A stretch of DNA of 64,000 nt from an uncultured Clostridium sp. (GTDB lineage Bacteria; Bacillota; Clostridia; Lachnospirales; Lachnospiraceae). Position numbers and translations under genes: made by a program. How positions within the stretch are numbered: the stretch's first letter is position 1; every line of letters begins with the position of its first letter. Below the pieces are notes generated by a model. That model searched no databases. It saw nothing but the letters and a program-made list of their open reading frames with translations, and was not told where the DNA came from. The stretch covers positions 56,898 to 120,897 of the forward strand of contig CAMMNN010000002.1 in assembly GCA_946498245.1 (NCBI GenBank), in the 5' to 3' direction. This document shows positions 15,721-62,975 of this stretch, piece by piece.

Positions 15721-15774
15721 ATTCCTTCAGCCCCTTCCTTGATATTATGTCATTTCTGTTACTTCTATTATACA

Positions 15775-15815
15775 CAAAAAGCTGTAAAATTCAACGTAGA
15801 TTTTTACAGCTTTTA
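15775..15815 (-). terminator. Intrinsic terminator after the dinJ-yafQ pair
   Basis: AGCTGTAAAA (15780-15789) pairs with TTTTACAGCT (15802-15811). On the minus strand it is followed by TTTTTGTGT. Confidence 0.6.
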
Positions 15816-39173: not shown

Positions 39174-39357
39174 TTTTCATAGTTCCTTTTCTAGTCTAAA
39201 AGGGCGGCACTGCCGCCGCAGATTGCAAACCTTTCAGGTGTCTTTTTTATTCTATCCTATTTTGTCAGGAAAAGAAACCACTTTTTCTATTCTTCTGGAC
39301 GAATCTTCCCTTTTCTTTTATAATAGACAAAAAGAATTACAAAGGAGAATCACTGCT

Positions 39358-40062
39358 ATGCCTTATTGTCCAAAATGCGATATGGAATTTGTAGAGGGAA
39401 TTACCGTCTGCTCTGACTGCGGCGGACCTCTGGTGGAATCCGAAGAAGCGTATAAGAAAATGAAGAAGGAGGAAGACGCAGAGAAGGCCGCCTCCCTGGA
39501 AAATCTCCGGGCTGCCGAAGCCTCCTTAGAGGAAGAAACCGGAAAAAGCGCCGCTCCCCATGAAGATCCTCTGGCCCCTATGGGGAAAAAGTCTGTAGTC
39601 CATCCCGGCGTTTATATCGACGCCGCCCAGCGCTACGACGATATGAAGTCTTCCGCCTCCGCTTTTTACCTGGTAGGAGCCGGCTTTACCGTCTTTTCCG
39701 CTGTGTGCTGGATGGGCCTTATTTCCCTTCCCCTGCTGGTACGCATTGTCATTACCGTTATCGGCCTTGGTTCTCTGGCTGTGGGCTTTAAAACCACCCA
39801 GTCAGCCAAAAAGCTGGCGCCGGAAATTTCCGCTGAAAAGGAGCGTACCCAGTCCATTATCCAGTGGTTTACAGACACCTACACCGGCAAGGATCTGGAC
39901 AGCCGCATCAGCGCCGAGCACTCCGATCTTTCAGAAGAGGAACGGAGCCTCAAGCGCTATGAGCTGATTCAGGATTACCTGGTAACCAATCACGATCTTC
40001 CGGATCCGGCTTATGTAGACGCTTTGGCGGAAGAAATTTACGGAAAGCTTTTCGAGGCTTAA
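39358..40062 (+). CDS. Zinc-ribbon membrane protein, hypothetical
   Basis: Start at ATG 39358 after AAAGGAGAA. N-terminal CPKC...CSDC zinc ribbon, acidic linker, two hydrophobic helices. Confidence 0.65.
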   Translation: MPYCPKCDMEFVEGITVCSDCGGPLVESEEAYKKMKKEEDAEKAASLENLRAAEASLEEETGKSAAPHEDPLAPMGKKSVVHPGVYIDAAQRYDDMKSSASAFYLVGAGFTVFSAVCWMGLISLPLLVRIVITVIGLGSLAVGFKTTQSAKKLAPEISAEKERTQSIIQWFTDTYTGKDLDSRISAEHSDLSEEERSLKRYELIQDYLVTNHDLPDPAYVDALAEEIYGKLFEA

Positions 40063-41055: not shown

Positions 41056-41724
41056 TCAGCCTCCCGTTGTGGAAAAATGCTGATAATCTTTGCAGGTTGT
41101 CCAGTCTCCGCCCCATAAAAACCCATACTTTTCAAAAATCCGCACACAGGCGTCTCCCGCCTGGATTTTATAGGGAAATTCCTTTGTCCTATCAGAATAG
41201 ACGCCGCTTCCCTCCGGGGAGCAGCAAAGCTTCCCCTGGGCGTCGGTTCTGACGTAAGGGTTATAAAGAGGATTAATATCCACCGCCACACCCAGGCTGT
41301 GGAGAGACAGCTTTTCCTTTCCCGGAACCTTCCGGAAGTTAAAGCAACTGGAATTATTGGCAGCCATAGACGCCTCGTCGTCCCCGCCGTACTCGTCAAT
41401 GAGAAGCACCTTCTCTATGGGATATTTCTCCTGATACAGCTCCCAAAAAACTTCCAGAAGAGCCTGACTGACGCTTTTATCACAGATAAGCTCACCCACC
41501 GTCGTACCCTTTGGCCCCCAATGGAGCAGCCTCAGATAGCGGAGGCTTTCCCTGGGAACCGTGCAGTCCTCTTTAAAGGATTTTTTCCAAATCCTCTGGA
41601 AAATTTCGTCCGTAATGGCGGATTCATAGAAATACTTCCTGCCCTCTTCACCTAAGAAAGCGCCGCCGGCTGCCTGTTCCCCCGGCTGCAGCTCCTGTTC
41701 TTCTCTATTATCCATAATTTTCAT
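41056..41724 (-). CDS. M15 family (VanX/VanY-type, LAS) zinc peptidase with no signal peptide
   Basis: H-x6-D motif SLHSLGVAVDIN and a C-terminal His in DYQHF. The N-terminus is acidic and hydrophilic. Confidence 0.75.
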   Translation of the reverse strand: MKIMDNREEQELQPGEQAAGGAFLGEEGRKYFYESAITDEIFQRIWKKSFKEDCTVPRESLRYLRLLHWGPKGTTVGELICDKSVSQALLEVFWELYQEKYPIEKVLLIDEYGGDDEASMAANNSSCFNFRKVPGKEKLSLHSLGVAVDINPLYNPYVRTDAQGKLCCSPEGSGVYSDRTKEFPYKIQAGDACVRIFEKYGFLWGGDWTTCKDYQHFSTTGG

Positions 41725-41736: not shown

Positions 41737-43257
41737 CTAAAAGCTGGCATAGATAAATGCCGACGGATCGTATCCTCTGCCGTAACATCCCCATATCAGT
41801 ACCAGAAATGCCAGCACAGCGCAGGAAGCCCCGCATACTGCAAGGTTTCGCTCCTTCTTTTCTTTTTCCAGGCTTCGGGATACCGCCAAAAAAAGTATCA
41901 GGCCGCAGAGAAGGACTCCGCCGTCAGGCCCTGACAGCCCCAGAGAAGCAAGGCCTTCCCCGGTAAACAGTCCCAGATTGCCGGAAAACATACCTTTTAA
42001 GATCCCCAATGCCATTTTTAAGGAATCAGAGCGGAAAAATACAAATCCCACCGCCACCAGCACAAAAGTACGGAGTCTTTGAAAGCCCGTCCACAGGGGA
42101 TGTTCCCGCCGGATCCCCGTTTTTTCATAAAATTTCTTCTGCCACGGCTCCGTCATCAAAGCCGCCGCCATAAGAATGCCATGGTACAGGCCGGATCCGA
42201 TAATAAAAGTCCACTTCCCGCCATGCCACAATCCAAGGAGAAACCATACGGACAAAAGGGCCGCCGCTGCGGAAAGCTTTTTCCCCTGTTTCTTCCCCAG
42301 CCATTTCTTTCCAAAAGCTCCAATGGCCTGGAAAGCCCCGGTCTTTTGGAGGGGATACATGACAAAATCCCGGAACCACGCGCCCAGGGTCATATGCCAT
42401 CTTCTCCAAAATTCCGCAATGGTACGGGAAGCAAAGGGCCTGCGGAAATTCTCCGCCAGAGAAACGCCGAAAAGCCGAGCCGTTCCCAGGGCAATATCCA
42501 TAGCCCCGTTAAAATCCGTATAAAGCTGCAGGGCAAAGGCCACGGCTCCCAGAATCAGGAAGCTTCCGCTGTAGGTTTCATAATCCCCGTAAACCGTATT
42601 GACCATTACGGCCAGCCGTTCTGACAGTACCAGCTTTTGGAAGAACCCCCAAAGCATTCTCTCTAATCCGGCGAAGAAATTTTCCGCCGAAAAGCCCTCT
42701 CCCTGAAAAAGAGACGGCGATACTTCCCCATACCGGACAATGGGGCCCATGGCCATCTGGGGGAAGAAGCCGCCGAAAAGAGCCAGCCGCAGCGGATTTT
42801 TCTCCGCCTTTAAAATTCCCCAATAAACCTCTGTCAGATACCCTGTGAGGGTCAAAGTGTAAAAAGAAATAGCCAGAGGAGCGCCCGTTTCCACAGGTTC
42901 CCATTGGTATTCCCTTCCCGTCAGCCAGGAAATCTCTTCCATGGTGTAGCCCGGAAAATTTCTGTACTGGAAGGCTGCCAAAAGGACAAGGAGCACAGCC
43001 AGAGTTCCCCAAAAAAGCCCTTTTTCTATCCCTCCATCTGCCTCTCTGGTTCTTCCTTTCTCAATTCCCAGAGCCGCAATCCATACCAGGAAGGCGGAAA
43101 CACCGTACACAAAAAGGCTTTTCACCCCGCCTGCCAGACACAGATACAGGGCGCTGGCCAGACATAAAAGCCCTGGCCTAAAGCCTTTGGGGCAGCCGTA
43201 ATACAAAACCAGGAGAAGAATTAAAAACAGCCCGAAGCCATAGGATACAAAGGTCAT
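41737..43257 (-). CDS. MBOAT family membrane-bound O-acyltransferase (DltB/AlgI-like)
   Basis: 506-aa polytopic ORF with FWRRWHMTLGAWFRDF and the catalytic-His block LGLWHGG. ATGA overlap with the carrier-protein gene. Confidence 0.9.
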   Translation of the reverse strand: MTFVSYGFGLFLILLLVLYYGCPKGFRPGLLCLASALYLCLAGGVKSLFVYGVSAFLVWIAALGIEKGRTREADGGIEKGLFWGTLAVLLVLLAAFQYRNFPGYTMEEISWLTGREYQWEPVETGAPLAISFYTLTLTGYLTEVYWGILKAEKNPLRLALFGGFFPQMAMGPIVRYGEVSPSLFQGEGFSAENFFAGLERMLWGFFQKLVLSERLAVMVNTVYGDYETYSGSFLILGAVAFALQLYTDFNGAMDIALGTARLFGVSLAENFRRPFASRTIAEFWRRWHMTLGAWFRDFVMYPLQKTGAFQAIGAFGKKWLGKKQGKKLSAAAALLSVWFLLGLWHGGKWTFIIGSGLYHGILMAAALMTEPWQKKFYEKTGIRREHPLWTGFQRLRTFVLVAVGFVFFRSDSLKMALGILKGMFSGNLGLFTGEGLASLGLSGPDGGVLLCGLILFLAVSRSLEKEKKERNLAVCGASCAVLAFLVLIWGCYGRGYDPSAFIYASF

Positions 43258-43505
43258 TTCTTCTGCTCCTGTTTCCTGTCAATCAGATCCGCCATTTCCC
43301 CTACGTTTCCCATGGTGGTCACTTCTCCCATGGTAAATTTAATGTCAAAGGCATTTTCCACAGCTACAATGAGGTTAATGTGTTCCAGGCTGTCCCATTC
43401 CTCAATGTCCGCCGCTGTCGTATACTCGCTTACGTGGATTTCCGGATCGTCAAAAACATCCTGGAATACCTGATCCAGCCTTTCAAAAATCTCTTCTCTC
43501 GTCAT
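43254..43505 (-). CDS. Acyl/peptidyl carrier protein (DltC-like)
   Basis: 83-aa acidic ORF with the phosphopantetheine Ser motif EEWDSLEHINL. Confidence 0.85.
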   Translation of the reverse strand: MTREEIFERLDQVFQDVFDDPEIHVSEYTTAADIEEWDSLEHINLIVAVENAFDIKFTMGEVTTMGNVGEMADLIDRKQEQKK

Positions 43506-43533
43506 CTTTCTTCCTCCTGCCCTCTTGTCTTTC

Positions 43534-45336
43534 TTACGTTCTTTTTATCCCAATAGCCCGGTTTTGGGGCGCATAGCCTTTTATCTCCATCTCCCAAATC
43601 CCGGCGCCGTCTTCTTTTTCTTCTATCAGGCCAAAGCCCATGGTTTTATAAAATTCCTTTACCATGGCGTTTTTGGGCGTGGGATAGTAATATCCCCTGA
43701 CTTTGGAAATTCCTCTTTCTCCGGCCCTTCTGACCAATTCATCCAGCATAGCCTTTTCCATGTCCCGCTTTAATACCCGGCAGGACATAAGCCACAAAAG
43801 GATATGGAGAGTCTCCCCCTCCTGCTTTCCCAAAACCACGGAAACTACGCCGTTGTCCCCAAAGCGGTCCTCCAGCTTTCCGTACAGATCCAAATACTCT
43901 TCAGACTGAGCAAACTCCTTTAGCTGGGCTTCCGTATATCTTCTGGTGGTAAGATTAAACTGGTTGGATTTATTGGTAAGCTGGGCGATTCTTGCCATAT
44001 ACTCCGGAGGAAAGGATCCAATCTCCCCTTTCATCTCCAAAGATTCCAGGTATTGGCCGTAATCGGAAAAAGCGGCCTCCTGCCGTTTCCTCAGGGCGTT
44101 TTCCCGGTACATATCGTTCCGTTTCAGATCGTCCGCCGACAGCCTGACTCCCTCAAAGAAACCGGAACGGTCCAGGATCCGGATATAGCGCTCCGGCTGA
44201 GGCTGCTGGCCCTCTGTGATTTCCGGCGCCGCCGTCTGGGGGCACTGGGCCTTTACCATATGACGTTCCGCCGGGTTGTCGTCTACAAAGACCAGGGCGT
44301 CCTCCCCGATATTGAGTTCCTTTGCGATTTCCTTTAAATTTCTGTCCTTAGGCTCCCAATTGGCCTTCACGACAATAAAATCCTCCGGCTTTAAGATGCT
44401 GTCCGGCCGTCTCAGGCCAGCCAGGGCGTTTTCCTCCTGGTTTTTGGAATTGACGTTTAAAAGGATCCCCAGCTTTTTGCAGGCCTTTACATAGGTTTGA
44501 AATTCGCTGTAAACCTGGGCCATGCCCGTTTCCTGTCCAATCTCAATGGCCTCCGGCCCGTCGTCGCCCACTACGCCGCCCCAAAGGGTATTGTCCAGAT
44601 CCAGAGCCAGGGCTTTTTTATTTTTTCCGTAAAGGGCTTTTACCATATTGGCCAGATTAAAAGCCAAATCCGGAACGGCAGGCACTGCGGGACTGCATTT
44701 ATACATATGCCAGTACAGAGGATCGTCCCAACGGCTCAGGCCGTAATCGGCAGAGAGCCAATCAATATCCTGAATCAAAAAGTCTTCGTGTTCCGCTGCA
44801 TACTGGCAAAACCTCTGGTTTAGCTGTCCCAAAAACCAGCCTCTGCCCCGAAAATCCCAGACGTCCATGTTTCCCATGAGGCGGAAAAAGGGCTTTTCAA
44901 AATTGTTCTGGATAATAGGACAGTGAAACCTGTCAGAAAGGCTTTCCCAGATCTGCCGGAAATGGTTCCAGATTTCGTCCAGCTTTTCTTCAGCCTTTTC
45001 CCTGGTATCCCCTGGGGCCGGAAAAGCTTTCTCCGGAACGTTCCGGCTGGTGGTATGAATATAAATCAAATCCGGCTGAAAGTCGGAAAGCTCCTGATTT
45101 CCAAATACTCCGTCCTCGTAGTAACGGTTATAGCCGGACTCGTAAAATTCTCCCTCAATGCCGTAATTTAACAGAAACAGCTCCAGCATCTGAATGACGT
45201 TGTGGGTTGTAGATCCGCCTAAAACAGCGATCCGTTTCCGGATCCGATCCGTTTTCTCTTCCAAAAGGAGCCTTTTGAGGCTCTTTCTTTTTTTTAGCAG
45301 GTAATTCCCGTCAAAGGGGTATTCCAGCTCCCTCAT
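43534..45336 (-). CDS. HAD-IIIC / FkbH-like domain protein
   Basis: 600-aa ORF with HAD motif I LDLDNTLWGG and a downstream VDDNP block. The C-terminal GNAT-like region has a conserved-looking Cys (LWLMSCRVLKR). Confidence 0.8.
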   Translation of the reverse strand: MRELEYPFDGNYLLKKRKSLKRLLLEEKTDRIRKRIAVLGGSTTHNVIQMLELFLLNYGIEGEFYESGYNRYYEDGVFGNQELSDFQPDLIYIHTTSRNVPEKAFPAPGDTREKAEEKLDEIWNHFRQIWESLSDRFHCPIIQNNFEKPFFRLMGNMDVWDFRGRGWFLGQLNQRFCQYAAEHEDFLIQDIDWLSADYGLSRWDDPLYWHMYKCSPAVPAVPDLAFNLANMVKALYGKNKKALALDLDNTLWGGVVGDDGPEAIEIGQETGMAQVYSEFQTYVKACKKLGILLNVNSKNQEENALAGLRRPDSILKPEDFIVVKANWEPKDRNLKEIAKELNIGEDALVFVDDNPAERHMVKAQCPQTAAPEITEGQQPQPERYIRILDRSGFFEGVRLSADDLKRNDMYRENALRKRQEAAFSDYGQYLESLEMKGEIGSFPPEYMARIAQLTNKSNQFNLTTRRYTEAQLKEFAQSEEYLDLYGKLEDRFGDNGVVSVVLGKQEGETLHILLWLMSCRVLKRDMEKAMLDELVRRAGERGISKVRGYYYPTPKNAMVKEFYKTMGFGLIEEKEDGAGIWEMEIKGYAPQNRAIGIKRT

Positions 45337-45380
45337 CCTATGATTTCCCCCTTTTTTCTAAGGCTTTTATCTTCACAAAA

Positions 45381-45434
45381 GGAGCTGCCCGCAGCAAGCT
45401 CAGACTCACGCCTGATGGCCTGTGCAGCAGCTCC
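45381..45434 (-). terminator. Possible internal terminator/attenuator hairpin between the secreted-protein gene and the FkbH-like gene
   Basis: On the minus strand, GGAGCTGC ... GCAGCTCC (8-bp outer stem, long structured loop) is followed by TTTTGTG. Confidence 0.35.
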
Positions 45435-45447
45435 GTCCGCCATTCCG

Positions 45448-45951
45448 TTACTTTTTCGCTACGTAATACTCATAAGCAATATCTACTACTTTATCGTTGT
45501 CAATGCCGCAGTCAATGACGATCTGGGAATTTCCCAGAGTCACGGTGTAAAGGCCCAGGCTTTCCACTGCGTCAGGGTAAGCTTTCTTTACGTCCCCGGG
45601 CGTCTGTCCCAGCTTAACGCCCTCTTCCGTAGCCGCGCCGTCTTTCAATACCACGGTCTGAATAATGGTCTTTTTGGCTTCGTTCTGGGTGGTGTAAATG
45701 TCAAAATCATCATACTGATATACCTTGTCTTTTCCTCCGTTGGCGCAGTTATTTAAGGTCTTAACCGCATCCGCTTTTCCAAGGCTGTCCAGCACCGGAT
45801 CCGCCTCAGCTCCTACTGCAATCTGAACCTTATCCGCCGTAAAGGTGTAGGCCGTCTTTGCCGCCTCCGCCCATGTGCAGACGGTGGAACTAAAAACCGC
45901 CGCCGCTGTCAAGAAAACCGCCGCCGCTTTTTTTCCTTTTCTCATTTTCAT
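45448..45951 (-). CDS. Small secreted protein, hypothetical
   Basis: 167-aa ORF with an N-terminal signal peptide (KKAAAVFLTAAAVFSSTVCTWAEA). No family recognised. Confidence 0.6.
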   Translation of the reverse strand: MKMRKGKKAAAVFLTAAAVFSSTVCTWAEAAKTAYTFTADKVQIAVGAEADPVLDSLGKADAVKTLNNCANGGKDKVYQYDDFDIYTTQNEAKKTIIQTVVLKDGAATEEGVKLGQTPGDVKKAYPDAVESLGLYTVTLGNSQIVIDCGIDNDKVVDIAYEYYVAKK

Positions 45952-46014
45952 TTCCTCCTGATTATCAGTATCTCTTTATCTTAATCTCTTCATCCTAATC
46001 TCTTTATCTTATGT

Positions 46015-47103
46015 TTACTCCGCTTCCTGATAGAATTTGGAAATATAGCCCAATTCCTCAAATTCCTCAGCCTGGAGAATTTTTTCCCCTTCATAGGCCT
46101 GAAGCCGCTCCTCATAATAAGCCGCCGTATCCGCCTCGTTTCTATGATCCGGTAAATTGTATTCTTCCTGAAGGACGGCGCCCAGATAGCGGGCTACCTT
46201 TTCCGCCCCATAGACATTTAAGTGAAGGCCTTCGTCATAGGTATCCCTTGACATATCCAGCCCCGTTTCCTCCATAAGCTCTAAAAAATTCAGGTACAGA
46301 AGCTGGTGTTCCTCAGCATAAGCCTCTATCTGCTCTTCATAAGGCTGAGGCCATTCCGGGTACAGGCTGGGAGCCTTCATAAGAACCAGGGCAATCCCTC
46401 TCTCCTGGCAGGCTTCCCGTATCCTATCCAGATACTCATAATTTTCTTCCGGAAAGGTGTAATCCGCCCTTCTCCTCTCTCTGGGAAATTCCCCGGCGGG
46501 CCGAATATCCGCCCGCAGATAATATCCCTGATAGGAGGTAAGGGGCTTCTCCTTCCAGCTATAGAGAAAATCTTCTTTTTCCAGGCTGCTCCATCTGGAA
46601 TGGTAGCGGAGAATAGGAAAAATGTACTCTATTACATTCTCATCTTCCATGGCAGAAGCGGCAATCCCTTCCCATTTATTTTTCCCCCAGGCCATTCCGT
46701 CAAAGACAATGCGGTTGTATTCCTCCGTGTCCTGGGCCGCCGTTTCCATGGCCTGGACATTGAACAAAACCACTTTAGGCGTTTCCCGCTCCAGGGCGTC
46801 CATCAAAAGGTAGTAGGACTGAGATACCAGTTGGTTGGCGTTTCCCCGGATAAAGCTTGTAATTCCATATTCCCGCCAAAGCTCCATGGGGGAGATATTT
46901 TCATAGGACTCGCAGTTGCCGATAATTAACAAATCGTGGGAGGTTTGATCCCGGTAATATTCTTCTGTAAAATTGCCTTCTATGACGGCTCCCATATACT
47001 TGGGCATAAGGATCCTCTGAGCAGCGGCGGCCGCCAGCAAAAATACCGCCCCGGTCAGGATCCATGCCAGTAAAAGCCGTCCTTTTTCCTTCTTTTCCAT
47101 CAT
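46015..47103 (-). CDS. Membrane-anchored SGNH/GDSL-like protein (DltD/PatB analogue)
   Basis: One N-terminal TM helix. IIGNCESY block near the N-terminus and a block-V-like YDEGLHLNVYG. Its start overlaps the upstream gene's stop by 1 nt (TAATG). Confidence 0.65.
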   Translation of the reverse strand: MMEKKEKGRLLLAWILTGAVFLLAAAAAQRILMPKYMGAVIEGNFTEEYYRDQTSHDLLIIGNCESYENISPMELWREYGITSFIRGNANQLVSQSYYLLMDALERETPKVVLFNVQAMETAAQDTEEYNRIVFDGMAWGKNKWEGIAASAMEDENVIEYIFPILRYHSRWSSLEKEDFLYSWKEKPLTSYQGYYLRADIRPAGEFPRERRRADYTFPEENYEYLDRIREACQERGIALVLMKAPSLYPEWPQPYEEQIEAYAEEHQLLYLNFLELMEETGLDMSRDTYDEGLHLNVYGAEKVARYLGAVLQEEYNLPDHRNEADTAAYYEERLQAYEGEKILQAEEFEELGYISKFYQEAE

Positions 47104-48158
47104 TACGGCGTCGCCGGATAAGCGCTGACGTCAAAATTGTGGGCGCCCCAGGAATCCGCCCGAAGCTGGCCTGTGGTCACCAGACACCAACGGCCTCCGG
47201 TCCTTCTGGGGGTGGTATCAAAATGGTACCAGACTCCGTCCACATTTACCAAATTCCAGAAATGATCTCCGTCAGAAGCCCGGGTTACCCGGATATTCGG
47301 CATCCCGGCGGCCTCTAACAGATACTTTGACATAGCGTAGTATTCAAAGCAGTTTCCGCTGTGACGGCGGAACCCGTAGAGCGCCGCAGCCGCCTCGCCG
47401 CTTTCCGGTCTGAGTCCTCCGGTAGTGTAGCGCATATTTCCTCTGACATAATTATAAATTGCCGACGCCTTCTGGGGCTTTGTCATAGAGCTGTTGGTAA
47501 TGGAGGCTACAATCTGAGCCGCTATAGCCTCTGCCTGAAGCTCTTCCTCCGTCTTATTGACAGCGGGATCCTCCACGGCCCCGTCTTCTCCCAAAACGTA
47601 CTGAAGGCCGTCTACGGTAATGGTCTGGCCCTTTAACATTCCGCCGTCCGTACCCACGCGGTAACGCTTTCCGTCCGTCTCGATCCAGGTATTCACAGCC
47701 ATATAGCCCTGGCTGTCAAAATAGTACCAGACCCCGTTTATCTTCTGCCAGCCGTCTGCATAATAGCTTCCATCATAATTCAGGTAATACCAGCCGTTTT
47801 CATCTTTTTTCCAACTGCTGACACCAGGCCCCGGCGCATCGCTTTCCTCTTCCGTGTAAACGCCAAGGGAATGCTCTTCCTGGGGCTCTTCTATCCAAAC
47901 CCCATTGCCGTCAAAGCGTTCCTTCTTTCCGTCCACCAGGTAGCTTCCTGTTACCATACGGCTGTTGCCGTCAAAATAGTACCACTTGCCGTCGATTTCC
48001 CTCCAGGCATTGCGGACGTAAGAACCGTTTTCTTCTTGATACCGCCACGACGTAATTCCGTTTTCCTGCTTCTCCCAGCCCTGGGCCAAGGCCGGCCCTG
48101 TCAGGCTGACGGAAAGGATCGCTGAAAAAACCGCTGCAGCCGCTCTTTTCTTTTTCAT
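47103..48158 (-). CDS. Cell-wall-binding-repeat protein with a C-terminal transglutaminase-like cysteine protease domain
   Basis: Signal peptide and several GW/WYYF choline-binding-type repeats (GKWYYFDGNSRMVTG, NGVWYYFDSQGYM). C-terminal GNCFEYYA ... GDHFWNLV ... WYHFDTT gives a Cys-His-Asp core. Confidence 0.8.
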   Translation of the reverse strand: MKKKRAAAAVFSAILSVSLTGPALAQGWEKQENGITSWRYQEENGSYVRNAWREIDGKWYYFDGNSRMVTGSYLVDGKKERFDGNGVWIEEPQEEHSLGVYTEEESDAPGPGVSSWKKDENGWYYLNYDGSYYADGWQKINGVWYYFDSQGYMAVNTWIETDGKRYRVGTDGGMLKGQTITVDGLQYVLGEDGAVEDPAVNKTEEELQAEAIAAQIVASITNSSMTKPQKASAIYNYVRGNMRYTTGGLRPESGEAAAALYGFRRHSGNCFEYYAMSKYLLEAAGMPNIRVTRASDGDHFWNLVNVDGVWYHFDTTPRRTGGRWCLVTTGQLRADSWGAHNFDVSAYPATP

Positions 48159-48235
48159 TTGATGTTCCCCACTGCTCTTTTGATGTAAAATTTCCCATTA
48201 ATTGGTTCTATTTTACCCCTCACAGCGGGATATTG

Positions 48236-50425
48236 TCAATATTCAGTTATCTCATAGCGGAAAGATTCATATTCCTCTTGAGGTACCGGGAGAAGGAGGC
48301 CGCCGTACATCAGCGCCGCTCCGGAATACACGGTTCCGTTTACCTGGTACATCCGCTCTTTTTCCAGTCCCTTCAGCTTTACCACCACCGGGGTAGGATT
48401 TGCCTGAAGCCGCGTCATTACGGCACAGAAAAGACCGTTCTTTTTTTCCTTATCCATAAACTGCCATGCCGTTACCCTGTCGTTTCCATAGGGGCCGGCC
48501 AGACGGTAATAGTCTCCCTCATGAACCAGCTCGTCGTACCGTTTGTACTCCTCCACCTGCTTCCGGATAATCTCTTTTTCCTCAGGGGTCATCTTCGTCA
48601 GATCCAATTCATATCCGAAGCTTCCGGCCATGGCTACGGTTCCTCTGGTTTCCAGAGGCGTACTGCGGCCCGTCTGGTGGTTGGGGCAGGCCGATACGTG
48701 GCTTCCCACAGTTCCAATGGGGTAGCCAAAGGAGGTTCCGTACTGAATTTTCAGACGCTCCATAGCGTCTGTATTGTCGCTGCACCAGATCTGAGGCGTA
48801 TAATACAGCATACCGGCGTCAAAACGTCCGCCGCCGCCGCTGCATCCCTCAAATAAGATATGCGGATACTTTTTGGTCAGTCTTTCCAGGAGATCGTACA
48901 GCCCCAGAACATACTGATGGCAAACTTCGCCCTGACGTTCCGGAGGAAGCGCTGCGGAATAAATATTTCCCAGGCTCCTGTTCATGTCCCACTTAATATA
49001 TTCGATATTGGCGGAGTCCAGAACGGCGCTCATGGATTCTTCAATATAATCCCGCACGTCTTTTCTGGAAAAATCCAGGACAAACTGTTCCCTGGAGATG
49101 TTTCCCTTCCGGCCGGGGAACTGCAAAGCCCAGTCCGGATGTTTCCGGTACAGATCGCTGTCCTCGGAAATCATTTCCGGTTCAAACCACACTCCCAGCT
49201 TCATTCCAAGGGCGTTAATCCCGTCCGCCAGTTCCTTTAAGGTACAGCCCAGTTTTTCTTCATTCACATACCAGTCGCCCAGTCCGGAATCGTCAAAATC
49301 TCTCTTTCCAAACCAGCCGTCGTCCATAACCAGCATCTCGATTCCCAGCTCTTTTGCGTCTTTGGCGATCTGCAAAAGCTTTTCTCCGTTAAAATCAAAA
49401 TAGGTGGCTTCCCAGTTGTTAATGAGGATAGGCCGTCTTTTGTGAGCCCATTCTCCTCTTAAAAGGTGTTTCCGGATCCCGTCGTGGTAGTTTTGGGTCA
49501 ATTGGCACAGCCCCTTTGAACTGTAGCTGAGAGCTGCTTCCGGAAGGGTAATCTCCTCTCCCGGCTTCAGGCCAAAGGAGAACATATCCGGGTGGATTCC
49601 CATTACCGCCCTGGTCTGGTGAATCTGATCTACTTCAATCTCCGCCAGAAAACATCCGCTGTATAAAAACATCATTCCGTAGCAGTCTCCCTGTTCTTCC
49701 GTGGCGTGACGGTCGCACAGGATCACAAAAGGATTGTGGTGGTGGCTGGACGCGCCTCTTATGCTTCCCACAGACTGCTTGCCGTGATAGAGCGGGTTTC
49801 TCTCTGTCTGGCGTTCCATAGCATGGCGGCCGTAAAAATGAATCCAGTCAAACTGATTCTGATTGAAATCCAGGCAGACGGACATGGCTTTCTCCAGCCG
49901 AATCTTTTCATTAGAAGCGTTTTCTACCTTAACGGCCCTGGTGATAATATCCTCTTTTTCTAAAACTCCGTAATACAAGATTACCCGGATATTGGTAACG
50001 GGATCTTCCAGAGTAATCTCCAGGCTCTCCCCTTCCCCTTCATCCCAAAACATGGCCGGAAGGCCGGGAAGACTGTACTTCCCAGGGTAAATCTTATGGG
50101 AACGGTAACGGAGATCCGTCACGCAGCTTCCATCGCCGTTGACAGTCTGAATGCTGTCGCAGCGGTAATCTCCGTTTCCAAAGCAGGAATATTCCTGAGG
50201 AAAATAATCCAGGGAAAAGCTTCTGTCTTCCTTCGCTTCATAGGGGTTTCCGGAAAAGCCTCTGTCCCGCCTCTGAATCAGATAAGATAAATCCGAGTCC
50301 GCTTCCAGCCTTTCTCCGTAATACAGATGAAACAAGAAGCCGAACTCTCCAATTTTCATCTGGTAGGTGGTACGTTCTGTCTGCAGATTAAATACCTTTG
50401 TCTTTTCATTGTACACAATAGCCAT
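48236..50425 (-). CDS. Alpha-galactosidase, GH36 (copy A)
   Basis: 729-aa ORF with ILINNWEATYFDF, DDGWFGKR, KWDMNR and CSGGGGRFD blocks. Confidence 0.93.
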   Translation of the reverse strand: MAIVYNEKTKVFNLQTERTTYQMKIGEFGFLFHLYYGERLEADSDLSYLIQRRDRGFSGNPYEAKEDRSFSLDYFPQEYSCFGNGDYRCDSIQTVNGDGSCVTDLRYRSHKIYPGKYSLPGLPAMFWDEGEGESLEITLEDPVTNIRVILYYGVLEKEDIITRAVKVENASNEKIRLEKAMSVCLDFNQNQFDWIHFYGRHAMERQTERNPLYHGKQSVGSIRGASSHHHNPFVILCDRHATEEQGDCYGMMFLYSGCFLAEIEVDQIHQTRAVMGIHPDMFSFGLKPGEEITLPEAALSYSSKGLCQLTQNYHDGIRKHLLRGEWAHKRRPILINNWEATYFDFNGEKLLQIAKDAKELGIEMLVMDDGWFGKRDFDDSGLGDWYVNEEKLGCTLKELADGINALGMKLGVWFEPEMISEDSDLYRKHPDWALQFPGRKGNISREQFVLDFSRKDVRDYIEESMSAVLDSANIEYIKWDMNRSLGNIYSAALPPERQGEVCHQYVLGLYDLLERLTKKYPHILFEGCSGGGGRFDAGMLYYTPQIWCSDNTDAMERLKIQYGTSFGYPIGTVGSHVSACPNHQTGRSTPLETRGTVAMAGSFGYELDLTKMTPEEKEIIRKQVEEYKRYDELVHEGDYYRLAGPYGNDRVTAWQFMDKEKKNGLFCAVMTRLQANPTPVVVKLKGLEKERMYQVNGTVYSGAALMYGGLLLPVPQEEYESFRYEITEY

Positions 50426-50507
50426 ATTGGTATCTCCTGTTTTGTCATTTATTTTGCTTTGTTATCTTGATTTCAGAAATACGGGACTCAGGCTTTTCCA
50501 TTCATTT

Positions 50508-52310
50508 TTATACCAGCCACAAAACCTCATACGGGCCAAGTAAAATCTGATTATTCCAGGATCTGACCCTGCGGCCGGTAAGAAGGTCTTCCATCTCTCC
50601 CGGAAGGCCAAACCAATCAAAATGGCAGGTATCAGCCCACTGTTCCTTTTCTGAAAAATTGGCCAGCACCATCATCTTGTCGCCTTTATGGAATCCGAAT
50701 ACAGCGGGATTTCCCATATCCACCGGAATGGATTTCAATTCAGAGGAAAAGACCTTGCTGCTTTTGCGAATTTCCAGCATCCGTCGGATTTCCGTAAAAA
50801 TCTTCCCGGGAAGGGTACGGGTATCCTCTCTCTTTTCGGCGGCTTCCCAGTCCATCTTTCCTCTGTGAAGCCAGCGTGAATCATGGGCGATGGCCGGATC
50901 CTTTTTGTAGCTCCAGTCGTTTAACTGGCCCAGTTCGTCTCCGCTGTACAAAAGGGGGATTCCCGTATATGCAATAACAATGCTGTTCAGCAGCAGAATC
51001 CTCTTTACCGCCAATTCTATTTTATACTGATGCTTTTCATTGACAGCCTGCTCCAAGCCGCACATAGAGGCCATAGTGCCGCTGTTGCGGGCATCCAGGG
51101 TCACGGGATTAAACTCGTATAACTCTCCTATAGAAAAGCTTCCCGGAAACCTTCCTTCCATAAAGCGGATGATGAACTGTTTATGCTTCTCCGGATCCAG
51201 TCCCAGCTCCCGAATAATCTTCTCTTCAAATCCCCAGCCAATATCATCATGACACCGGGCATAGTTAATCCATACCCCATCCTCCGGGACGCCATAGTCA
51301 ATAGAGAGGGATTTCTCCATAAGGCGTGTGTCCCTGGTGGCCAGACTGTTCCAAAGAAGCACCATCATAGATGCATTATACATCACATTGCACTCTTTTT
51401 CATCTGGTGTTCCAAAATATTTTACAATTTCGTGAGGTTCCACAATAGCTTCCCCTAAAAATACCACAGAAGGGCAAACTTCGTCAGCTATCATCCGCAT
51501 CATCTTCAAAAGCGTATGCACTTGCGGCAGATTCATAGAGGCAGTTCCCAGCTCTTTCCACATATAAGGGATAGCGTCCAGCCGGAAAATATCCACGCCT
51601 TTATTGGCCAGAGTCAGCATAACCTCCGTAATTTTGTTAAAGACCTGGGGATTCCTGTAGTTGAGATCCCATTGAAATTCGTAGAACCGGGTCATTACAT
51701 ACTTATGGATGTCTTCGTAATATGTAAAGTTTCCCGGGGCCACCTCCGGAAATATCTGCGTAAGGGTCTTTTCATACTGATCCGGTATTTCCCTGGTATC
51801 AAACATATAGTACATATCCTGATAATCCGGATCCCCTTCCAGGCACTTTTTCGCCCACTCATGTTCTTTGGCCGTATGGTTTAACACAAAGTCGATACAG
51901 GTCCGAATCCCCTTTTTCTTTAGAAGCTGTACTACCCGTTCAAACTGTTTCATAGTCCCCAGCCGCTTTTCAATGGAAAGGTAATCGGAAACGGCGTAGC
52001 CGCCGTCGTTGTTTCCCTCTCTGGATTTCAAAAGGGGCATAAAGTGGACGTAGGTAACTCCCAAATCCGCCAAATAGTCGATTTTGCTTTCAAAGCCTTT
52101 GAGATTTTCGCTGAATTTATCCAGATACAGCATAATTCCGGCCATCTTTTCTGACAGATACCAGCTATTGCCCTGCTGATCCGCTTCCTTTAAATCCGCG
52201 CTTCTTTCTTTTTTTGCCTTTTCGATAATTTCTTCCAACTGGCCCCACCGGTAATTGGAAATGTCATTATCTCCGTATAATTCCACATAGTATTCCCGTA
52301 ATGTTTTCAT
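50508..52310 (-). CDS. GH13 alpha-amylase-family enzyme (amylosucrase / sucrose-phosphorylase-like)
   Basis: 600-aa ORF with GH13 conserved regions (DFVLNHT, FRLDAIPYMW, LGEAIV, YARCHDD) and DGGYAVSDY. Confidence 0.8.
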   Translation of the reverse strand: MKTLREYYVELYGDNDISNYRWGQLEEIIEKAKKERSADLKEADQQGNSWYLSEKMAGIMLYLDKFSENLKGFESKIDYLADLGVTYVHFMPLLKSREGNNDGGYAVSDYLSIEKRLGTMKQFERVVQLLKKKGIRTCIDFVLNHTAKEHEWAKKCLEGDPDYQDMYYMFDTREIPDQYEKTLTQIFPEVAPGNFTYYEDIHKYVMTRFYEFQWDLNYRNPQVFNKITEVMLTLANKGVDIFRLDAIPYMWKELGTASMNLPQVHTLLKMMRMIADEVCPSVVFLGEAIVEPHEIVKYFGTPDEKECNVMYNASMMVLLWNSLATRDTRLMEKSLSIDYGVPEDGVWINYARCHDDIGWGFEEKIIRELGLDPEKHKQFIIRFMEGRFPGSFSIGELYEFNPVTLDARNSGTMASMCGLEQAVNEKHQYKIELAVKRILLLNSIVIAYTGIPLLYSGDELGQLNDWSYKKDPAIAHDSRWLHRGKMDWEAAEKREDTRTLPGKIFTEIRRMLEIRKSSKVFSSELKSIPVDMGNPAVFGFHKGDKMMVLANFSEKEQWADTCHFDWFGLPGEMEDLLTGRRVRSWNNQILLGPYEVLWLV

Positions 52311-52326
52311 GTTTTTCCTCTCCCCG

Positions 52327-54561
52327 CTATTCTTCTACGGCAGTCAGCTCATAAATCCTGGAACTGAAGTCCAGAGCCGCCTCGGGATCTCTGAGATTCA
52401 GTTCGCTGCAGGAGCTGTCGGAAACAATCAGTCCCGCATTCTGCAGTTCTGCGCCGGTAAAGTCGCCTTTTCTGCCCTTTATTTCATAATGGAATCCCGG
52501 CTCCAGCCCCTTTAGCGAAAGCCGCTTAAAGCCTGCGTTTACTTCATTAAGTATCTTATAATATCCCACCAGAGCCTGCCTTTTATCCTCTGAAACCACC
52601 ATCCAGGCAGCGCTCGTGCTGCTTTCAAAAGGACTCTTTAACCGGTAGAACGTGCCTTTTTGGATTAACTCCCGGTAGCCTTTCACCCAGGCAATCTGGC
52701 GGCGGACTTCCTCCTGCTCTTCCTGTGTCAGTTTGTTTAAGTCAAGTTCGTATCCGAAAGCGCCAAAATATGCTACGTTGCCTCTCGTGGACAGGGGCGT
52801 CACCCTGCCAAGCTGGTGGTTAGGCGAAACGGACACGTGAGCCCCCATGCTGCTGATGGGATAAGCATAGGAAGAGCCGTACTGGATCTTCAGCCGTTCT
52901 ATAGCGTCCGTGTCGTCGCTGGTCCATGCCTGAGGCGCGTAGTACAGCATACCCGGATCAAACCGTCCGCCTCCGCTGGCGCAGGACTCAAAAAGAATGT
53001 GGGGGAATTTCCGGTTCAGCCGTTCATAGAGATCGTAAACGCCCAGGATATAGCGGTGGTAAATCTCCCCCTGCTTTTCCGCCGGATAGGCTCCGGAGAA
53101 GCATTCCGTAATAGACCGGTTCATATCCCATTTAATGTAGGAAATTTTTGCGTTCTCCAAAATCTCCGACATTTGTGCGAAAATATGATCCACCACTTCT
53201 TTTCTGGAAAAATCCAATACCATTTGGTGTCTTCCCAGAGAATGGCTTCTTCCCGGCGCTCCCAGTACCCAGTCGGGATGGGCCCTGTAAAGATCGCTGT
53301 CTTCATTGACCATTTCCGGTTCAAACCAGAGGCCGAATTTCATTCCCATAGCCTCTATCTTTTCCGACAGTCCGGAAATTCCTTCGGGAAGTTTTTCCCG
53401 GTTGACATACCAGTCTCCCAGTCCTGCGAAATCCGTGGTTCTCTTGCCAAACCAGCCGTCGTCCAGCACCATCAGCTCTACGCCTAATTCCTTAGCCTTC
53501 TCCGCAATTTTCAGAATCTTCTCTTCCGTAAAATCAAAATACGTAGCCTCCCAGTTATTAATGAGAATGGGGCGCACTTTATCCCGCCATTCTCCTCTGG
53601 CCAGTCTTGTGCGGTACAGCCGGTGGAAGGTCTGGCTCATGGCGTTTAGCCCTCTGTCGCTGTAAACCCATACTGCCTCCGGCGTCTGGAAGGTTTCCCC
53701 CGGTTCCAAATCCCAGCAGAATCCTCTGGGATTAATCCCCAAGGTCATGCGGACTGCCCCATAAGTATCCGCTTCCGCCTGAGCCAAGAAATTTCCGCTG
53801 TATACCAGAGAAAATCCCATGGCTTCCCCCTGAAATTCATCGGCGTTAGGACGCTTTAAAATTACGAAGGGATTTTGATGGTGGCTGGAATGGCCCCTCA
53901 TGCTTTCTACTGCCTGAATCCCCATTTCCAGCCGTCTTTTTCTCACTTCCCTTTCCCGGGACCAGGCGCCGGAAAACTGGATCCATTCATAATCCATATC
54001 CGGAAGATCCAGACATAAACTCATAGCGGAGTTAAGCTGAAGATATTTTCCTCCGAAATTTTCAAATCTGGCACTGCGGGCAATGGCGTTTTCATGTTCA
54101 AAGATCGTATACAAAAGCGTCAGCTTTACTTCCAGCACCCGGTCCTGAAGAACCAGTTCCAGAGTCGTCGCCTCATCCTCGGACTCCGTATAAGTAGCCG
54201 GAAGGCCGGGAAGCTCCGGCTTCCCCTGTATAACCTGGTAGCCAGTCAACGCGAAATTGGAAATCCGGCTTCCGTCCTCCCCAATGATTTCATAAGCCGG
54301 CTGTCTGAAATCCGTGGATCCAAAAGACGGATACTCCTGTCTTGCGTGTTCCAGGGTAAAAGAAGGATCTTCCTCTGAAACGTAAGGCGTCATAGGCCGG
54401 ACAGCCTTTTCGTGGAGATAGGCGTAAGACCGGCCCTCCTCCAAACGTTTCCCAGCGTAAAGCTGCAGCAGTGTGCCTGACTCCGTATACCCCATAATAT
54501 AACTGATATTGTTGTTATATAGATGAAACTGCTTAAATCCTTCACTGTACTCTATTCCCAT
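52327..54561 (-). CDS. Alpha-galactosidase, GH36 (copy B)
   Basis: 744-aa ORF that is a paralogue of copy A, with the same blocks: ILINNWEATYFDF, DDGWFGKR, KWDMNR, CASGGGRFD. Confidence 0.93.
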   Translation of the reverse strand: MGIEYSEGFKQFHLYNNNISYIMGYTESGTLLQLYAGKRLEEGRSYAYLHEKAVRPMTPYVSEEDPSFTLEHARQEYPSFGSTDFRQPAYEIIGEDGSRISNFALTGYQVIQGKPELPGLPATYTESEDEATTLELVLQDRVLEVKLTLLYTIFEHENAIARSARFENFGGKYLQLNSAMSLCLDLPDMDYEWIQFSGAWSREREVRKRRLEMGIQAVESMRGHSSHHQNPFVILKRPNADEFQGEAMGFSLVYSGNFLAQAEADTYGAVRMTLGINPRGFCWDLEPGETFQTPEAVWVYSDRGLNAMSQTFHRLYRTRLARGEWRDKVRPILINNWEATYFDFTEEKILKIAEKAKELGVELMVLDDGWFGKRTTDFAGLGDWYVNREKLPEGISGLSEKIEAMGMKFGLWFEPEMVNEDSDLYRAHPDWVLGAPGRSHSLGRHQMVLDFSRKEVVDHIFAQMSEILENAKISYIKWDMNRSITECFSGAYPAEKQGEIYHRYILGVYDLYERLNRKFPHILFESCASGGGRFDPGMLYYAPQAWTSDDTDAIERLKIQYGSSYAYPISSMGAHVSVSPNHQLGRVTPLSTRGNVAYFGAFGYELDLNKLTQEEQEEVRRQIAWVKGYRELIQKGTFYRLKSPFESSTSAAWMVVSEDKRQALVGYYKILNEVNAGFKRLSLKGLEPGFHYEIKGRKGDFTGAELQNAGLIVSDSSCSELNLRDPEAALDFSSRIYELTAVEE

Positions 54562-60535: not shown

Positions 60536-61741
60536 TTATTTATCGTTTGCAGCCGCTACTCCCGGAAGCTCCTTGCCCTCTAAAAATTCCAGAGATGCGC
60601 CGCCGCCAGTGGAGATATGGCTCATCTTATCGCCAAAGCCCAACTGATTAACTGCTGCTGCGGAATCGCCGCCGCCAATAATGGTAGTTGCGTCGGTTTC
60701 TGCCAGGGCCTTTGCTACGGCAATGGTTCCAGCCGCCAGAGTCGGGTTCTCAAATACGCCCATGGGTCCGTTCCAAACAACGGTTTTCGCGGATTTTGCT
60801 GCGTCTGCGTACAGTTTTGCAGTTTCCGGTCCAATATCCACGCCCTCTTTGTCTGCAGGAATGGCGTCTACGGAAACAACTTCCGTATCAACGGGTGCGT
60901 CAATGGGATTGGGGAACTCGGATACCAGTACGGTGTCAACGGGAAGCAGCAGCTTCTTACCCAGCTTCTCCGCCTTTTCAACCATCTCTCTGCAGTAGTC
61001 GATCTTGCTGTCGTCTACCAGAGATTTGCCGATTTCCTTGCCCTGAGCCTTTAAGAAGGTGTATGCCATACCGCCGCCGATAATCAGGGTGTCGCATTTC
61101 TCCAGAAGGTTGGAAATAACGTTTAATTTATCTGCAACCTTAGCGCCGCCCAGAATTGCAACGAAGGGGCGAACCGGATTTTCAACGGCATTGCCCAGGA
61201 AATCGATCTCTTTCTGCATTAAGTAGCCGACTACAGCCGTATCAACGTACTGGGTAACGCCTACGTTGGAGCAGTGAGCTCTGTGGGCGGTACCAAATGC
61301 GTCGTTTACATATACGTCGCACAGGGAAGCCAGATCTTTGCTGAACTCCTCGCCGTTCTTTGTCTCTTCCTTGCGGTAGCGGGTGTTCTCCAGAAGGATT
61401 ACATCGCCGTCCTGCATAGCCTCAACGGCTGCTTTTGCATTGGGGCCCACAACTTCTGGATCCGCTGCAAACTTTACTTCCTGGCCTAACAGCTCGGAAA
61501 GTCTTACGGCTACGGGAGCTAAAGACAGTTCCGGCTTCGGCTCTCCTTTGGGTTTCCCTAAGTGGGAGCAAAGAATCACTTTTCCGCCGTCAGCAATCAG
61601 TTTCTTAATCGTAGGCAGAGCGGCTACCAGACGGTTTTCATCGGTAATCTTTCCTTCCTTTAACGGTACGTTAAAATCGCATCTGCAAAGAACGCGTTTT
61701 CCTTTTACATTAATATCATCAACAGATTTTTTGTTAAGCAT
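60536..61741 (-). CDS. pgk: Phosphoglycerate kinase
   Basis: Start at ATG 61741 ([18 protein letters not shown]) after AAAGGAG. RCDFNVP and GGGDS motifs. The longer ORF runs through a terminator hairpin. Confidence 0.96.
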
Positions 61742-61765
61742 GGGACTGACTCCTTTCATTCTCAT

Positions 61766-61790
61766 AAAAAAGTGTGCGCTTGGCGCACAC
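61766..61790 (-). terminator. Second intrinsic terminator (possible attenuator) immediately upstream of pgk
   Basis: On the minus strand: GTGTGCGC-CAA-GCGCACAC followed by TTTTTT, ending 24 nt before the pgk ATG. Confidence 0.6.
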
Positions 61791-61890
61791 TCGCGCCAGA
61801 GCGCGGCTGCGTCAGCAGCCATATTCCCTTGCGCAGCGTGCGCCTCCCGCGAAGCGTTTTTCATTTCATAGAAACGAAGTTTCCTATGAA

Positions 61891-61943: not shown

Positions 61944-62975
61944 TTATGCTAATTCAGCAAAATATTTAATGGTTCTTACCATCTGGCTGGTATAGGAGTT
62001 CTCGTTGTCATACCATGAAACAACCTGTACCTCGTATAAGTCATCGCTGATCTTGGAAACCATAGTCTGAGTAGCATCGAACAGAGAGCCGTATCTCATG
62101 CCGATAACGTCAGAAGAAACGATAGGATCCTCGTTGTAGCCGAAGGACTCGCAAGCTGCTGCCTTCATAGCTGCGTTGATGCCTTCAACGGTAACGTCTG
62201 CGCCCTTAACAACAGCGGTTAAGATGGTGGTGGAACCGGTAGTAACCGGAACACGCTGTGCGGAACCGATGAGCTTGCCGTTTAATTCCGGAATAACCAG
62301 GCCGATTGCTTTTGCAGCGCCGGTGGAGTTGGGAACGATGTTAGCAGCGCCGGCTCTTGCTCTTCTTAAATCGCCCTTTCTGTGGGGGCCGTCCAGAATC
62401 ATCTGGTCGCCGGTGTATGCATGGATGGTGCTCATGATACCGGACTGAATGGGAGCATAGTCATTTAATGCCTTTGCCATAGGAGCCAGACAGTTGGTGG
62501 TGCAGGAAGCTGCAGAAATAATCTGATCGTCCTTGTCCAGAGTCTTCTCATTTACGCTGTATACGATGGTCTTTAAGTCATTGCCTGCCGGTGCGGAGAT
62601 AACAACCTTCTTTGCGCCTGCGGTAACGTGAGCCATAGCCTTGTCCTTCTTGCAGTAGAAGCCTGTACACTCCAGAACTACGTCTACGCCCAGTTCTCCC
62701 CAAGGAAGGTCTGCTGCGTTGGGTTCTTTGTAAATGGTAATGGTCTTGCCGTCAACAATGATGCAGCCCTCGCCTGCCTCTACAGTATGCTTGCCTTCGC
62801 CAATGTGGCCGCAGTAACCGCCCTGAGCAGTATCATACTTTAACAGGTTAGCCAGCATCTTCGGATCAGTTAAGTCGTTAATTGCAACAACGTCATATCC
62901 CTCTGCTCCAAACATCTGTCTGAATGCCAGACGACCGATACGGCCAAAACCATTGATTGCTACTTTTACTGCCAT
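61944..62975 (-). CDS. gap: Type I glyceraldehyde-3-phosphate dehydrogenase
   Basis: 343-aa ORF with INGFGRIGR and the catalytic SCTTNC motif ([10 protein letters not shown]). Confidence 0.97.

Follow-up and report, generated by a model that had tools for sequence, protein, structure and literature searches.

What does an FkbH-like loading enzyme supply when its neighbors are a carrier protein, an MBOAT acyltransferase and a membrane-anchored SGNH-fold protein, and when no polyketide synthase (PKS) is encoded around it? This question is raised by a locus of an uncultured Clostridium sp. (contig CAMMNN010000002.1), of which a stretch of 64,000 nt was analyzed; this whole stretch is called the window below, and all coordinates are window positions. 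The first-pass annotation had described the locus as five co-directional minus-strand genes that resemble the D-alanylation (Dlt) machinery and carry an FkbH-type loader in place of the adenylase DltA. The open reading frames (ORFs) were recovered with exactly the coordinates claimed:

46015-47103, minus strand: gene of the SGNH-fold protein, 362 aa
45448-45951, minus strand: gene of a secreted protein, 167 aa
43534-45336, minus strand: gene of the FkbH-like protein, 600 aa
43254-43505, minus strand: gene of an acyl carrier protein (ACP), 83 aa
41737-43257, minus strand: gene of the MBOAT, 506 aa

All motifs that had been quoted for these proteins are present in the translations (IIGNCESY, EGLHLNVYG, LDLDNTLWGG, LMSCRVLKR, EEWDSLEH, FWRRWHMTLGAWFRDF, and LGLWHGG), and the genes of the carrier and the MBOAT are translationally coupled by an ATGA overlap of the carrier stop codon and the MBOAT start codon (AAATGACC). 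As judged from the composition of the locus, these genes probably encode a pathway for the O-acylation of a surface polymer that is fed by the FkbH-like enzyme, depends on the carrier protein, and runs through the MBOAT and the SGNH-fold protein. By analogy with characterized FkbH-type enzymes the transferred group might be unmodified glycerate, for which we see roughly even chances.

The 600-aa protein belongs to the FkbH/HAD-IIIC family, as had been proposed. It matches TIGR01686 with 281.8 bits (cutoff 146.65) over model positions 3–321 of 323 and thus over the whole domain, matches the HAD-IIIC model TIGR01681 with 61.4 bits, and has a weak match to Pfam FkbH_N. Its domains are arranged as follows:

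residues ~35-232: FkbH_N domain
residues ~240-390: HAD-IIIC phosphatase domain
C-terminal part: transferase domain with Cys519

The catalytic motifs are intact. The HAD motif DLDNT (D246-L-D248-N-T) as well as S297-K298 and D352-D353 are invariant or nearly so in 16 homologs. The alignment to the FkbH model includes the C-terminal domain, where the expected cysteine is present: the SCRV motif (S518-C519-R520-V521) is invariant in comparison with homologs from Bacillus thuringiensis (encoded inside a nonribosomal peptide synthetase (NRPS)/PKS cluster), a Sinorhizobium meliloti plasmid, and Streptomyces, and the DLDxT, SK, and DD motifs are likewise invariant across the window protein and these three distant homologs. 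We take Cys519 to be the equivalent of the cysteine that was shown experimentally in OzmB and is the proposed acyl-S-enzyme site. The sole close relative in the Protein Data Bank (PDB) is BF1531 of Bacteroides fragilis (3slr; E 8e-48, residues 18–394). Full-length relatives at ~60% identity number in the thousands; where these carry a name, it is either HAD-IIIC family phosphatase or FkbH-like protein. The family as a whole comprises 14,129 clusters (50% identity) at E ≤ 1e-3 and 5,419 at E ≤ 1e-30, and the best 150 of these clusters consist mostly of standalone proteins of ~600 aa.

The small protein encoded downstream of the loader had been called a carrier, and this assignment held, with a PP-binding score of 20.8 bits that lies exactly at the cutoff and with matches to ACP models of NCBIfam that stay below their cutoffs. 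Its best relative in the PDB is the putative ACP 2lml (E 5e-19), and Ser39 in EEWDSLEH is the predicted phosphopantetheine site. The DltC model (NF003464) reaches 16.9 bits against a cutoff of 68 and is outscored by generic ACP models; in sequence terms, the protein is a generic ACP and not a DltC.

The MBOAT was also correctly recognized (PF03062, 43.4 bits versus a cutoff of 27). Its sole NCBIfam match is to the DltB model TIGR04091 (144.6 bits versus a cutoff of 375) and its best match in the PDB is DltB (6bug; E 1e-19), whose His289 and His336 align with His288 (RRWH) and His345 (LWHGG) of the window protein. The last six residues, F501-I-Y503-A-S-F506, form an FxYxxF shuttle motif. In the Dlt pathway, DltB passes D-Ala from DltC to the tyrosine of such a motif in the microprotein DltX, and in PatA, AlgI, and similar MBOATs the hexapeptide is located at the C-terminus of the enzyme itself, on two extra helices (PMC12148441, 2025). 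Going by these features, the window MBOAT classifies as a homolog of DltB that is not a DltB equivalog and has the PatA/AlgI architecture. Since the FIYASF shuttle is fused to the enzyme, no DltX would be needed, and the combination of a PatA/AlgI-type MBOAT with a dedicated carrier like that of Dlt would make the system a hybrid. Moreover, its nearest solved relative, DltB, is the only MBOAT known to take an acyl group from a carrier, which supports a carrier-dependent pathway. In MBOATs encoded next to an ACP in related loci (see below), the conserved histidines are mostly separated by 57 residues that include a Lys-rich insert, and in other MBOATs of the same loci by 37–40. The insert of the window protein (KKWLGKKQGKK, residues ~300–330) is aligned with the segment of DltB that contacts DltC (V305/I306) and may be a docking element for the ACP.

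For the 362-aa protein, Pfam yielded a sub-threshold match to Lipase_GDSL_2 (26.1 versus 32.9), none of the NCBIfam models matched, and a sequence search against the PDB returned noise only. Because sequence searches were thus uninformative, the SGNH fold was assigned by structure prediction. An AlphaFold (AF2) model (34 homologs, pLDDT 89) bears out that this is a single-span, SGNH-like protein, anchored in the membrane by an N-terminal transmembrane (TM) helix at residues 2–32. Foldseek retrieved TesA and GDSL lipases, DltD (6pfx), and PatB with this model, of which DltD had the highest query-normalized TM-score (TMq 0.43; E 2e-3). Membership in the DltD family itself was not confirmed, as PF04914 gave no match at E ≤ 0.01. 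Block I of the protein reads G62-N63-C64; among the 34 close homologs, G62 and C64 are invariant and His294 (block V, DxxxH) is nearly so, and distant members of the SGNH family have Ser (G-x-S) at the position of Cys64. Cys64 is the putative nucleophile, and if the protein is active with this residue the acyl-enzyme intermediate would be a thioester. A thiol nucleophile is unusual for an extracytoplasmic SGNH transferase. The signal-peptide protein of 167 aa that is encoded next to it is present as claimed, but it is not part of the conserved module and is better described as a lineage-restricted accessory. It matches no Pfam or NCBIfam family and has only 23 homolog clusters, whose named members are from Lachnospiraceae; its model is beta-rich (AF2 pLDDT 85), and a fold search returned weak matches only (best E 4e-3), to accessory domains of extracellular SCP-domain proteins and to YjgB.

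The association of FkbH-like, ACP, and MBOAT genes on which the first-pass annotation was built recurs across Clostridia. A scan of species-representative genomes (one per species) yielded at least 597 confirmed FkbH-like relatives, and the best 80 of these (54–68% identity), each with 10-kb flanks, were taken as the linkage set; they are mostly from Lachnospiraceae and Oscillospiraceae, with a few metagenome-assembled genomes whose labels are probably binning errors. In 47 of the 80 loci at least 6 kb are available on both sides (full-flank loci). Based on tblastn, the FkbH gene is followed by an ACP gene at a distance of no more than 400 bp in 63 of the 80 loci, and 72 loci have an ACP gene within 6 kb. 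An MBOAT gene on the same strand is found in 62 of the 80; for the full-flank loci the figure is 39 of 47. The order ACP-then-MBOAT recurs as well, and 62 of 69 MBOATs from these loci have FxYxxF at the extreme C-terminus, with six more ending in FIYARI or FIYASI. Chance adjacency was considered and is rejected by the linkage counts for ACP (63/80) and MBOAT (62/80).

The extracytoplasmic partner varies among these loci while FkbH, ACP, and MBOAT persist. It can be an SGNH protein of the window type (~20 loci), a GDSL protein, a DHHW/AlgX-like protein (PF14286, PF16822), or a member of one of two unassigned families; a further variant is DltD-like (PF04914) and adjoins second, oppositely oriented MBOATs. 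Such partner swapping is the pattern expected of a modular system of donor, MBOAT, and transferase. The related loci lie in a surface-glycan context, with GT2, GT4, GtrA, PMT_2-like (GT-C), and large membrane proteins (DUF6044, DUF6020) as recurrent neighbors. In some of them the FkbH–ACP pair is accompanied by genes of a MaoC-type dehydratase and an SDR reductase, in others by those of a split transketolase (N and C subunits) and an aldo-keto reductase; further recurrent neighbors of the pair are a VOC/glyoxalase-fold protein and a small HAD hydrolase. These accessory sets (seen in loci L005, L010, L013, L027, L054, L074, L078, and others) suggest a lineage-specific conversion of the ACP-bound unit, for instance of glyceryl to lactyl.

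As far as its members can be recognized by homology and motifs, the four-component module also crosses phyla. Plasmids of S. meliloti encode, in this order, an MBOAT with FLYQGF as its last residues, a protein that has one TM segment and GGS...DPGH blocks, an ACP, and an FkbH-like protein of 628 aa. The second of these genes (locus L082, 2386-3615, on plasmid CP050512.1; 409 aa) is annotated as ‘TonB-dependent receptor’. This is probably a misannotation, as its TM segment and its GGS and DPGH blocks, read by eye, resemble those of an SGNH/DltD-type partner; at the profile level, no similarity to the SGNH family of the window protein was detected. Outside of MBOAT loci, distant FkbH homologs occur in their classical contexts: a Methylosinus plasmid carries the set FabH-FkbH-ACP-PKS, and in Bacillus and Ralstonia the homologs are encoded within NRPS/PKS clusters. 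A mobilizable 56-kb plasmid of Clostridium perfringens (NZ_CP148680.1; locus L087, 4790-9001) carries yet another arrangement, in which two ABC transporter genes precede a cassette of nucleotidyltransferase, VOC protein, ACP, 538-aa FkbH-like protein, and a hypothetical protein. Given these varied contexts, the FkbH–ACP pair appears to be a portable donor-supply cassette that serves different consumers, the consumer in the clade of the window being the MBOAT.

The claim that the window contains neither an adenylation enzyme nor a PKS or NRPS was borne out. A six-frame scan of the whole window revealed no PROSITE AMP-binding signature, ketosynthase (KS) motif (DTACSS), or condensation (C)-domain motif (HHxxxDG), none of the window ORFs of at least 400 aa matches an adenylating or synthase family, and none of them has an AMP-binding Pfam match. 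The related loci are not embedded in PKS or NRPS clusters either: a KS or C-domain motif was found in none of the 80, and an AMP-binding signature occurs within 10 kb in only four of them.

From these components a three-step pathway can be envisaged; that it moves a glyceryl group, in which direction it does so, and to which acceptor are assignments by analogy. Firstly, in the cytoplasm, Cys519 of the FkbH-like enzyme would capture the acyl phosphate of 1,3-bisphosphoglycerate, as its homology to FkbH, OzmB, and ZmaN suggests (this chemistry of the family is summarized in PMC7489565); the HAD domain (Asp246/Asp248) would strip the 3-phosphate, and the D-glyceryl unit would pass to the phosphopantetheine on Ser39 of the adjacent ACP. 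Secondly, following the examples of DltB–DltC and PatA, glyceryl-S-ACP would dock on the cytoplasmic face of the MBOAT like DltC on DltB, and His345 would catalyze transfer through the membrane tunnel to Tyr503 of the FIYASF shuttle at the outer face. Thirdly, by analogy with DltX–DltD and PatA–PatB, the tyrosine ester would be handed to Cys64 of the SGNH-fold protein (Ser in its relatives), with His294 as the base, and the acyl group would finally move from Cys64 to a hydroxyl group of a wall or surface glycopolymer. The acceptor may be any surface glycopolymer and not specifically teichoic acid, because many of the related loci have glycosyltransferase, GtrA, and GT-C genes around them. Within the window the genes flanking the locus are wall-associated (cell-wall-binding repeats, M15 peptidase), and the flanks of the related loci carry glycan-synthesis genes. 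Glycerate esters on polysaccharides do exist, as native gellan carries L-glycerate; our literature search returned no reference for glycerate on gellan and none for the genes responsible.

Three other explanations have to be weighed against this pathway. The one that survives best, although we regard it as unlikely, retains the architecture and changes the acyl group: the FkbH-like enzyme would load a unit other than glycerate, or the glyceryl unit would first be converted, for example to a lactyl, pyruvyl, or hydroxymalonyl group. This overlaps with the proposed pathway and gains weight from the many related loci that add MaoC dehydratase and SDR or split transketolase and aldo-keto reductase genes, since FkbH together with a dehydratase and a ketoreductase generates lactyl units in some trans-AT PKS loading modules; the extra FkbH_N domain carried by this FkbH clade points in the same direction. 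The operon of the window, however, has no such tailoring genes, all residues common to FkbH proteins of the characterized type are conserved, and every characterized enzyme of the family is reported to use 1,3-bisphosphoglycerate (PMC7489565). Alternatively, two functions might share one locus, with the MBOAT and the SGNH-fold protein O-acetylating a polymer from acetyl-CoA and the FkbH–ACP pair supplying glyceryl units elsewhere for the same polymer, e.g., for the acylation, in the cytoplasm, of a sugar precursor or lipid. We deem this somewhat less probable still. The PatA/AlgI architecture and the fused FxYxxF motif of the MBOAT would fit it, as PatA uses acetyl-CoA (PMC12148441), and so would the FkbH–ACP pairs that occur without an MBOAT, both in eight of the 47 full-flank loci and on the C. 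perfringens plasmid. Against it stand the ATGA overlap of the ACP and MBOAT genes and the recurrence of their order, the conservation of the four-gene set across phyla, and the carrier-dependent DltB as nearest solved relative of the MBOAT. Nor does the operon encode a cytoplasmic acyltransferase, ketosynthase, or condensation enzyme that could consume the acyl-ACP; in its seven genes (the five listed above and one at either end, see below) no acyltransferase family was matched other than those of the MBOAT and the SGNH-fold protein. Finally, the FkbH–ACP pair might be a fragment of secondary metabolism that provides a PKS from another locus with extender units (glyceryl or methoxymalonyl) or with a tetronate precursor. 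This idea reflects the sole characterized role of the family and the PKS/NRPS contexts of its distant homologs (Methylosinus, Bacillus, Ralstonia), but it is highly improbable and was rejected, as KS and C-domain motifs are absent from the window and all 80 related loci, Pfam and NCBIfam identify neither a gene of the FkbG/I/K type nor a FabH-like one among those of the operon, and the conserved partners are the MBOAT and extracytoplasmic SGNH-type proteins.

Several points weigh against carrier-dependent glycerate transfer in a more general way. PatA-type MBOATs with a fused shuttle use acetyl-CoA (PMC12148441), and the window MBOAT could do so as well. The replacement of the SGNH serine by cysteine could mean an altered or lost activity, and a specificity for 1,3-bisphosphoglycerate is not readable from sequence; for every member of the pathway, the assignment draws on sequence and predicted structure. 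In eight of the 47 full-flank loci the FkbH gene, usually with an ACP gene, lacks an MBOAT gene within 10 kb, and the C. perfringens FkbH variant lacks one too, so the FkbH–ACP pair can serve other consumers. The linkage frequency is a measurement on one clade, since the 80 loci were selected as the best matches to the query among at least 597. Furthermore, genes in these loci were called by a crude longest-ORF filter, which sometimes displaced the short ACP gene by an antisense ORF; the ACP and MBOAT linkage counts are independent of this filter.

Set beside known systems, the proposed pathway agrees with Dlt in that a small carrier gene adjoins the gene of a DltB-homologous MBOAT, that an SGNH-fold protein is anchored by a single membrane pass, and that a cytoplasmic thioester donor would deliver to an MBOAT and onward to an external SGNH transferase. 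The Dlt-like analogy of the first-pass annotation thus stands for the carrier, the MBOAT, and the anchored SGNH fold, but the MBOAT is not of the DltB type and the SGNH-fold protein is not of the DltD family. The loader is an FkbH/HAD-IIIC enzyme instead of a DltA-type adenylase, and the carrier is a generic ACP with a DltC score far below the cutoff, just as the MBOAT falls short of the DltB equivalog cutoff. The FxYxxF motif, which in Dlt is located on DltX and absent from DltB, is fused to the window MBOAT, and the SGNH-fold protein has no match to the DltD model and a Cys in place of the nucleophilic Ser. The predicted acyl group is a neutral hydroxyacyl (glyceryl) group, whereas Dlt transfers cationic D-Ala. 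With PatA/PatB, AlgI/AlgJ/AlgX, and WssH/WssI the locus shares an MBOAT of ~500 aa with a C-terminal FxYxxF and a separate extracytoplasmic partner of the SGNH/AlgX type, which in some related loci is DHHW/AlgX-like; it differs in having a dedicated ACP gene that overlaps the MBOAT start and in encoding a loader. According to PMC12148441, only Dlt among the MBOAT/SGNH pathways has a carrier protein, and the others draw on acyl-CoA. In comparison with FkbH, OzmB, and ZmaN of polyketide and tetronate pathways, TIGR01686 membership, the DxDxT HAD motif, the SCRV cysteine, and an adjacent discrete ACP are common features; the window differs by lacking PKS, FabH-like, and FkbG/I/K genes, by having an MBOAT as consumer, and by the additional FkbH_N domain, which is also found in BF1531 (3slr).

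The transcription unit probably reaches beyond the five genes on both sides, where the following features are located:

47103-48158, minus strand: gene of a secreted cell-wall-binding/transglutaminase-like protein (Pfam Choline_bind_3/1, choline-binding-type repeats, and Transglut_core)
41056-41724, minus strand: Peptidase_M15_4 gene (VanY-like D-Ala-D-Ala carboxypeptidase family; Pfam 78.5 bits)
48210-48239, minus strand: candidate operon promoter (sigma-70-like TTGACA-18-TAAAAT, 11/12; a consensus match only)

The first of these genes overlaps the start of the SGNH gene by 1 nt (stop/start TAATG) and, on this evidence, is probably co-transcribed with and translationally coupled to it. At the other end, the M15 peptidase gene begins 12 nt 3' of the MBOAT gene with its own ribosome-binding site and is possibly co-transcribed with it. 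The candidate promoter (48239-48210) is the best promoter-like site of the region, just 5' of the first co-directional gene; all promoter and terminator matches are consensus matches only. Both flanking genes are outside the conserved module: among the loci compared, synteny of the transglutaminase-like gene is limited to the closest relative (L001) and that of the M15 peptidase gene to this relative and a near-identical metagenome contig (L085). In these two, the whole arrangement of the window is reproduced.

Directly upstream of the cluster (48236-54561, minus strand), two GH36 α-galactosidases (Melibiase family) flank a GH13 enzyme of the α-amylase family in what appears to be a raffinose/melibiose-type utilization block, and the candidate promoter divides this block from the acylation operon. 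The genes of phosphoglycerate kinase (PGK; 60536-61864, minus strand) and glyceraldehyde-3-phosphate dehydrogenase (GAPDH; 61944-62975, minus strand) are located ~15 kb from the cluster. These enzymes make or consume 1,3-bisphosphoglycerate, the presumed substrate of the FkbH-like enzyme; they probably represent an ordinary gap-pgk operon whose proximity is coincidental. The sole plus-strand gene nearby (39223-40062) encodes a 279-aa protein with an N-terminal, zinc-ribbon-like CxxC...CxxC segment and predicted membrane helices that matches no Pfam family. At 14001-16000 the GC content drops to 0.415, compared with ~0.50 elsewhere in the window; this segment may be foreign DNA and contains a 403-aa ORF (14003-15214, minus strand) for which no Pfam family was matched. 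The window ORFs of at least 400 aa include LepA, SpoIIP, histidine kinases, ComEC (the longest, with 852 aa), an MFS transporter, a protein of the N-acylglucosamine 2-epimerase family, a solute-binding protein, PGK, the GH36 and GH13 enzymes, an ABC transporter, and a PfkB kinase, and two further ones are without a significant family match.

Each component of the module has its place in an established family, and the relay across the membrane follows that of MBOAT–SGNH systems already described. The remark that no characterized example is known holds for the combination of these components: a full-text literature search found no description of an FkbH–ACP–MBOAT module, and returned only PKS and natural-product uses of FkbH together with papers on the mechanisms of Dlt and PatAB. 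Acyl decorations of wall polymers, such as D-Ala and acetyl groups, control surface charge, autolysis, resistance to antimicrobial peptides and lysozyme, phage adsorption, and recognition by the host. Two donor routes are known for MBOAT–SGNH systems, namely acyl-CoA and D-Ala-DltC charged by DltA. We consider it an evenly balanced proposition that gut Clostridia and some rhizobia possess, beside Dlt, a second carrier-dependent MBOAT pathway that takes 1,3-bisphosphoglycerate directly from glycolysis and places glycerate esters on surface glycopolymers, or esters of lactate or another hydroxyacyl group where tailoring sets are present, and that in the lineage of the window employs a thiol SGNH protein. 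The hypothesis is directly testable, because cultured organisms carrying the module exist (Eisenbergiella tayi DSM 26961, Lachnospiraceae bacterium 28-4, and S. meliloti strains). The module is widespread in gut Clostridia, and its carriers include major taxa of the human and animal gut (Lachnospiraceae, Oscillospiraceae). If the proposed pathway is correct, it would constitute a third donor route and a new class of envelope modification, tying the decoration of the envelope directly to glycolytic flux, and it would provide a function for the large portion of the FkbH/HAD-IIIC family that lies outside PKS pathways, with the structural-genomics orphan BF1531 among its members.

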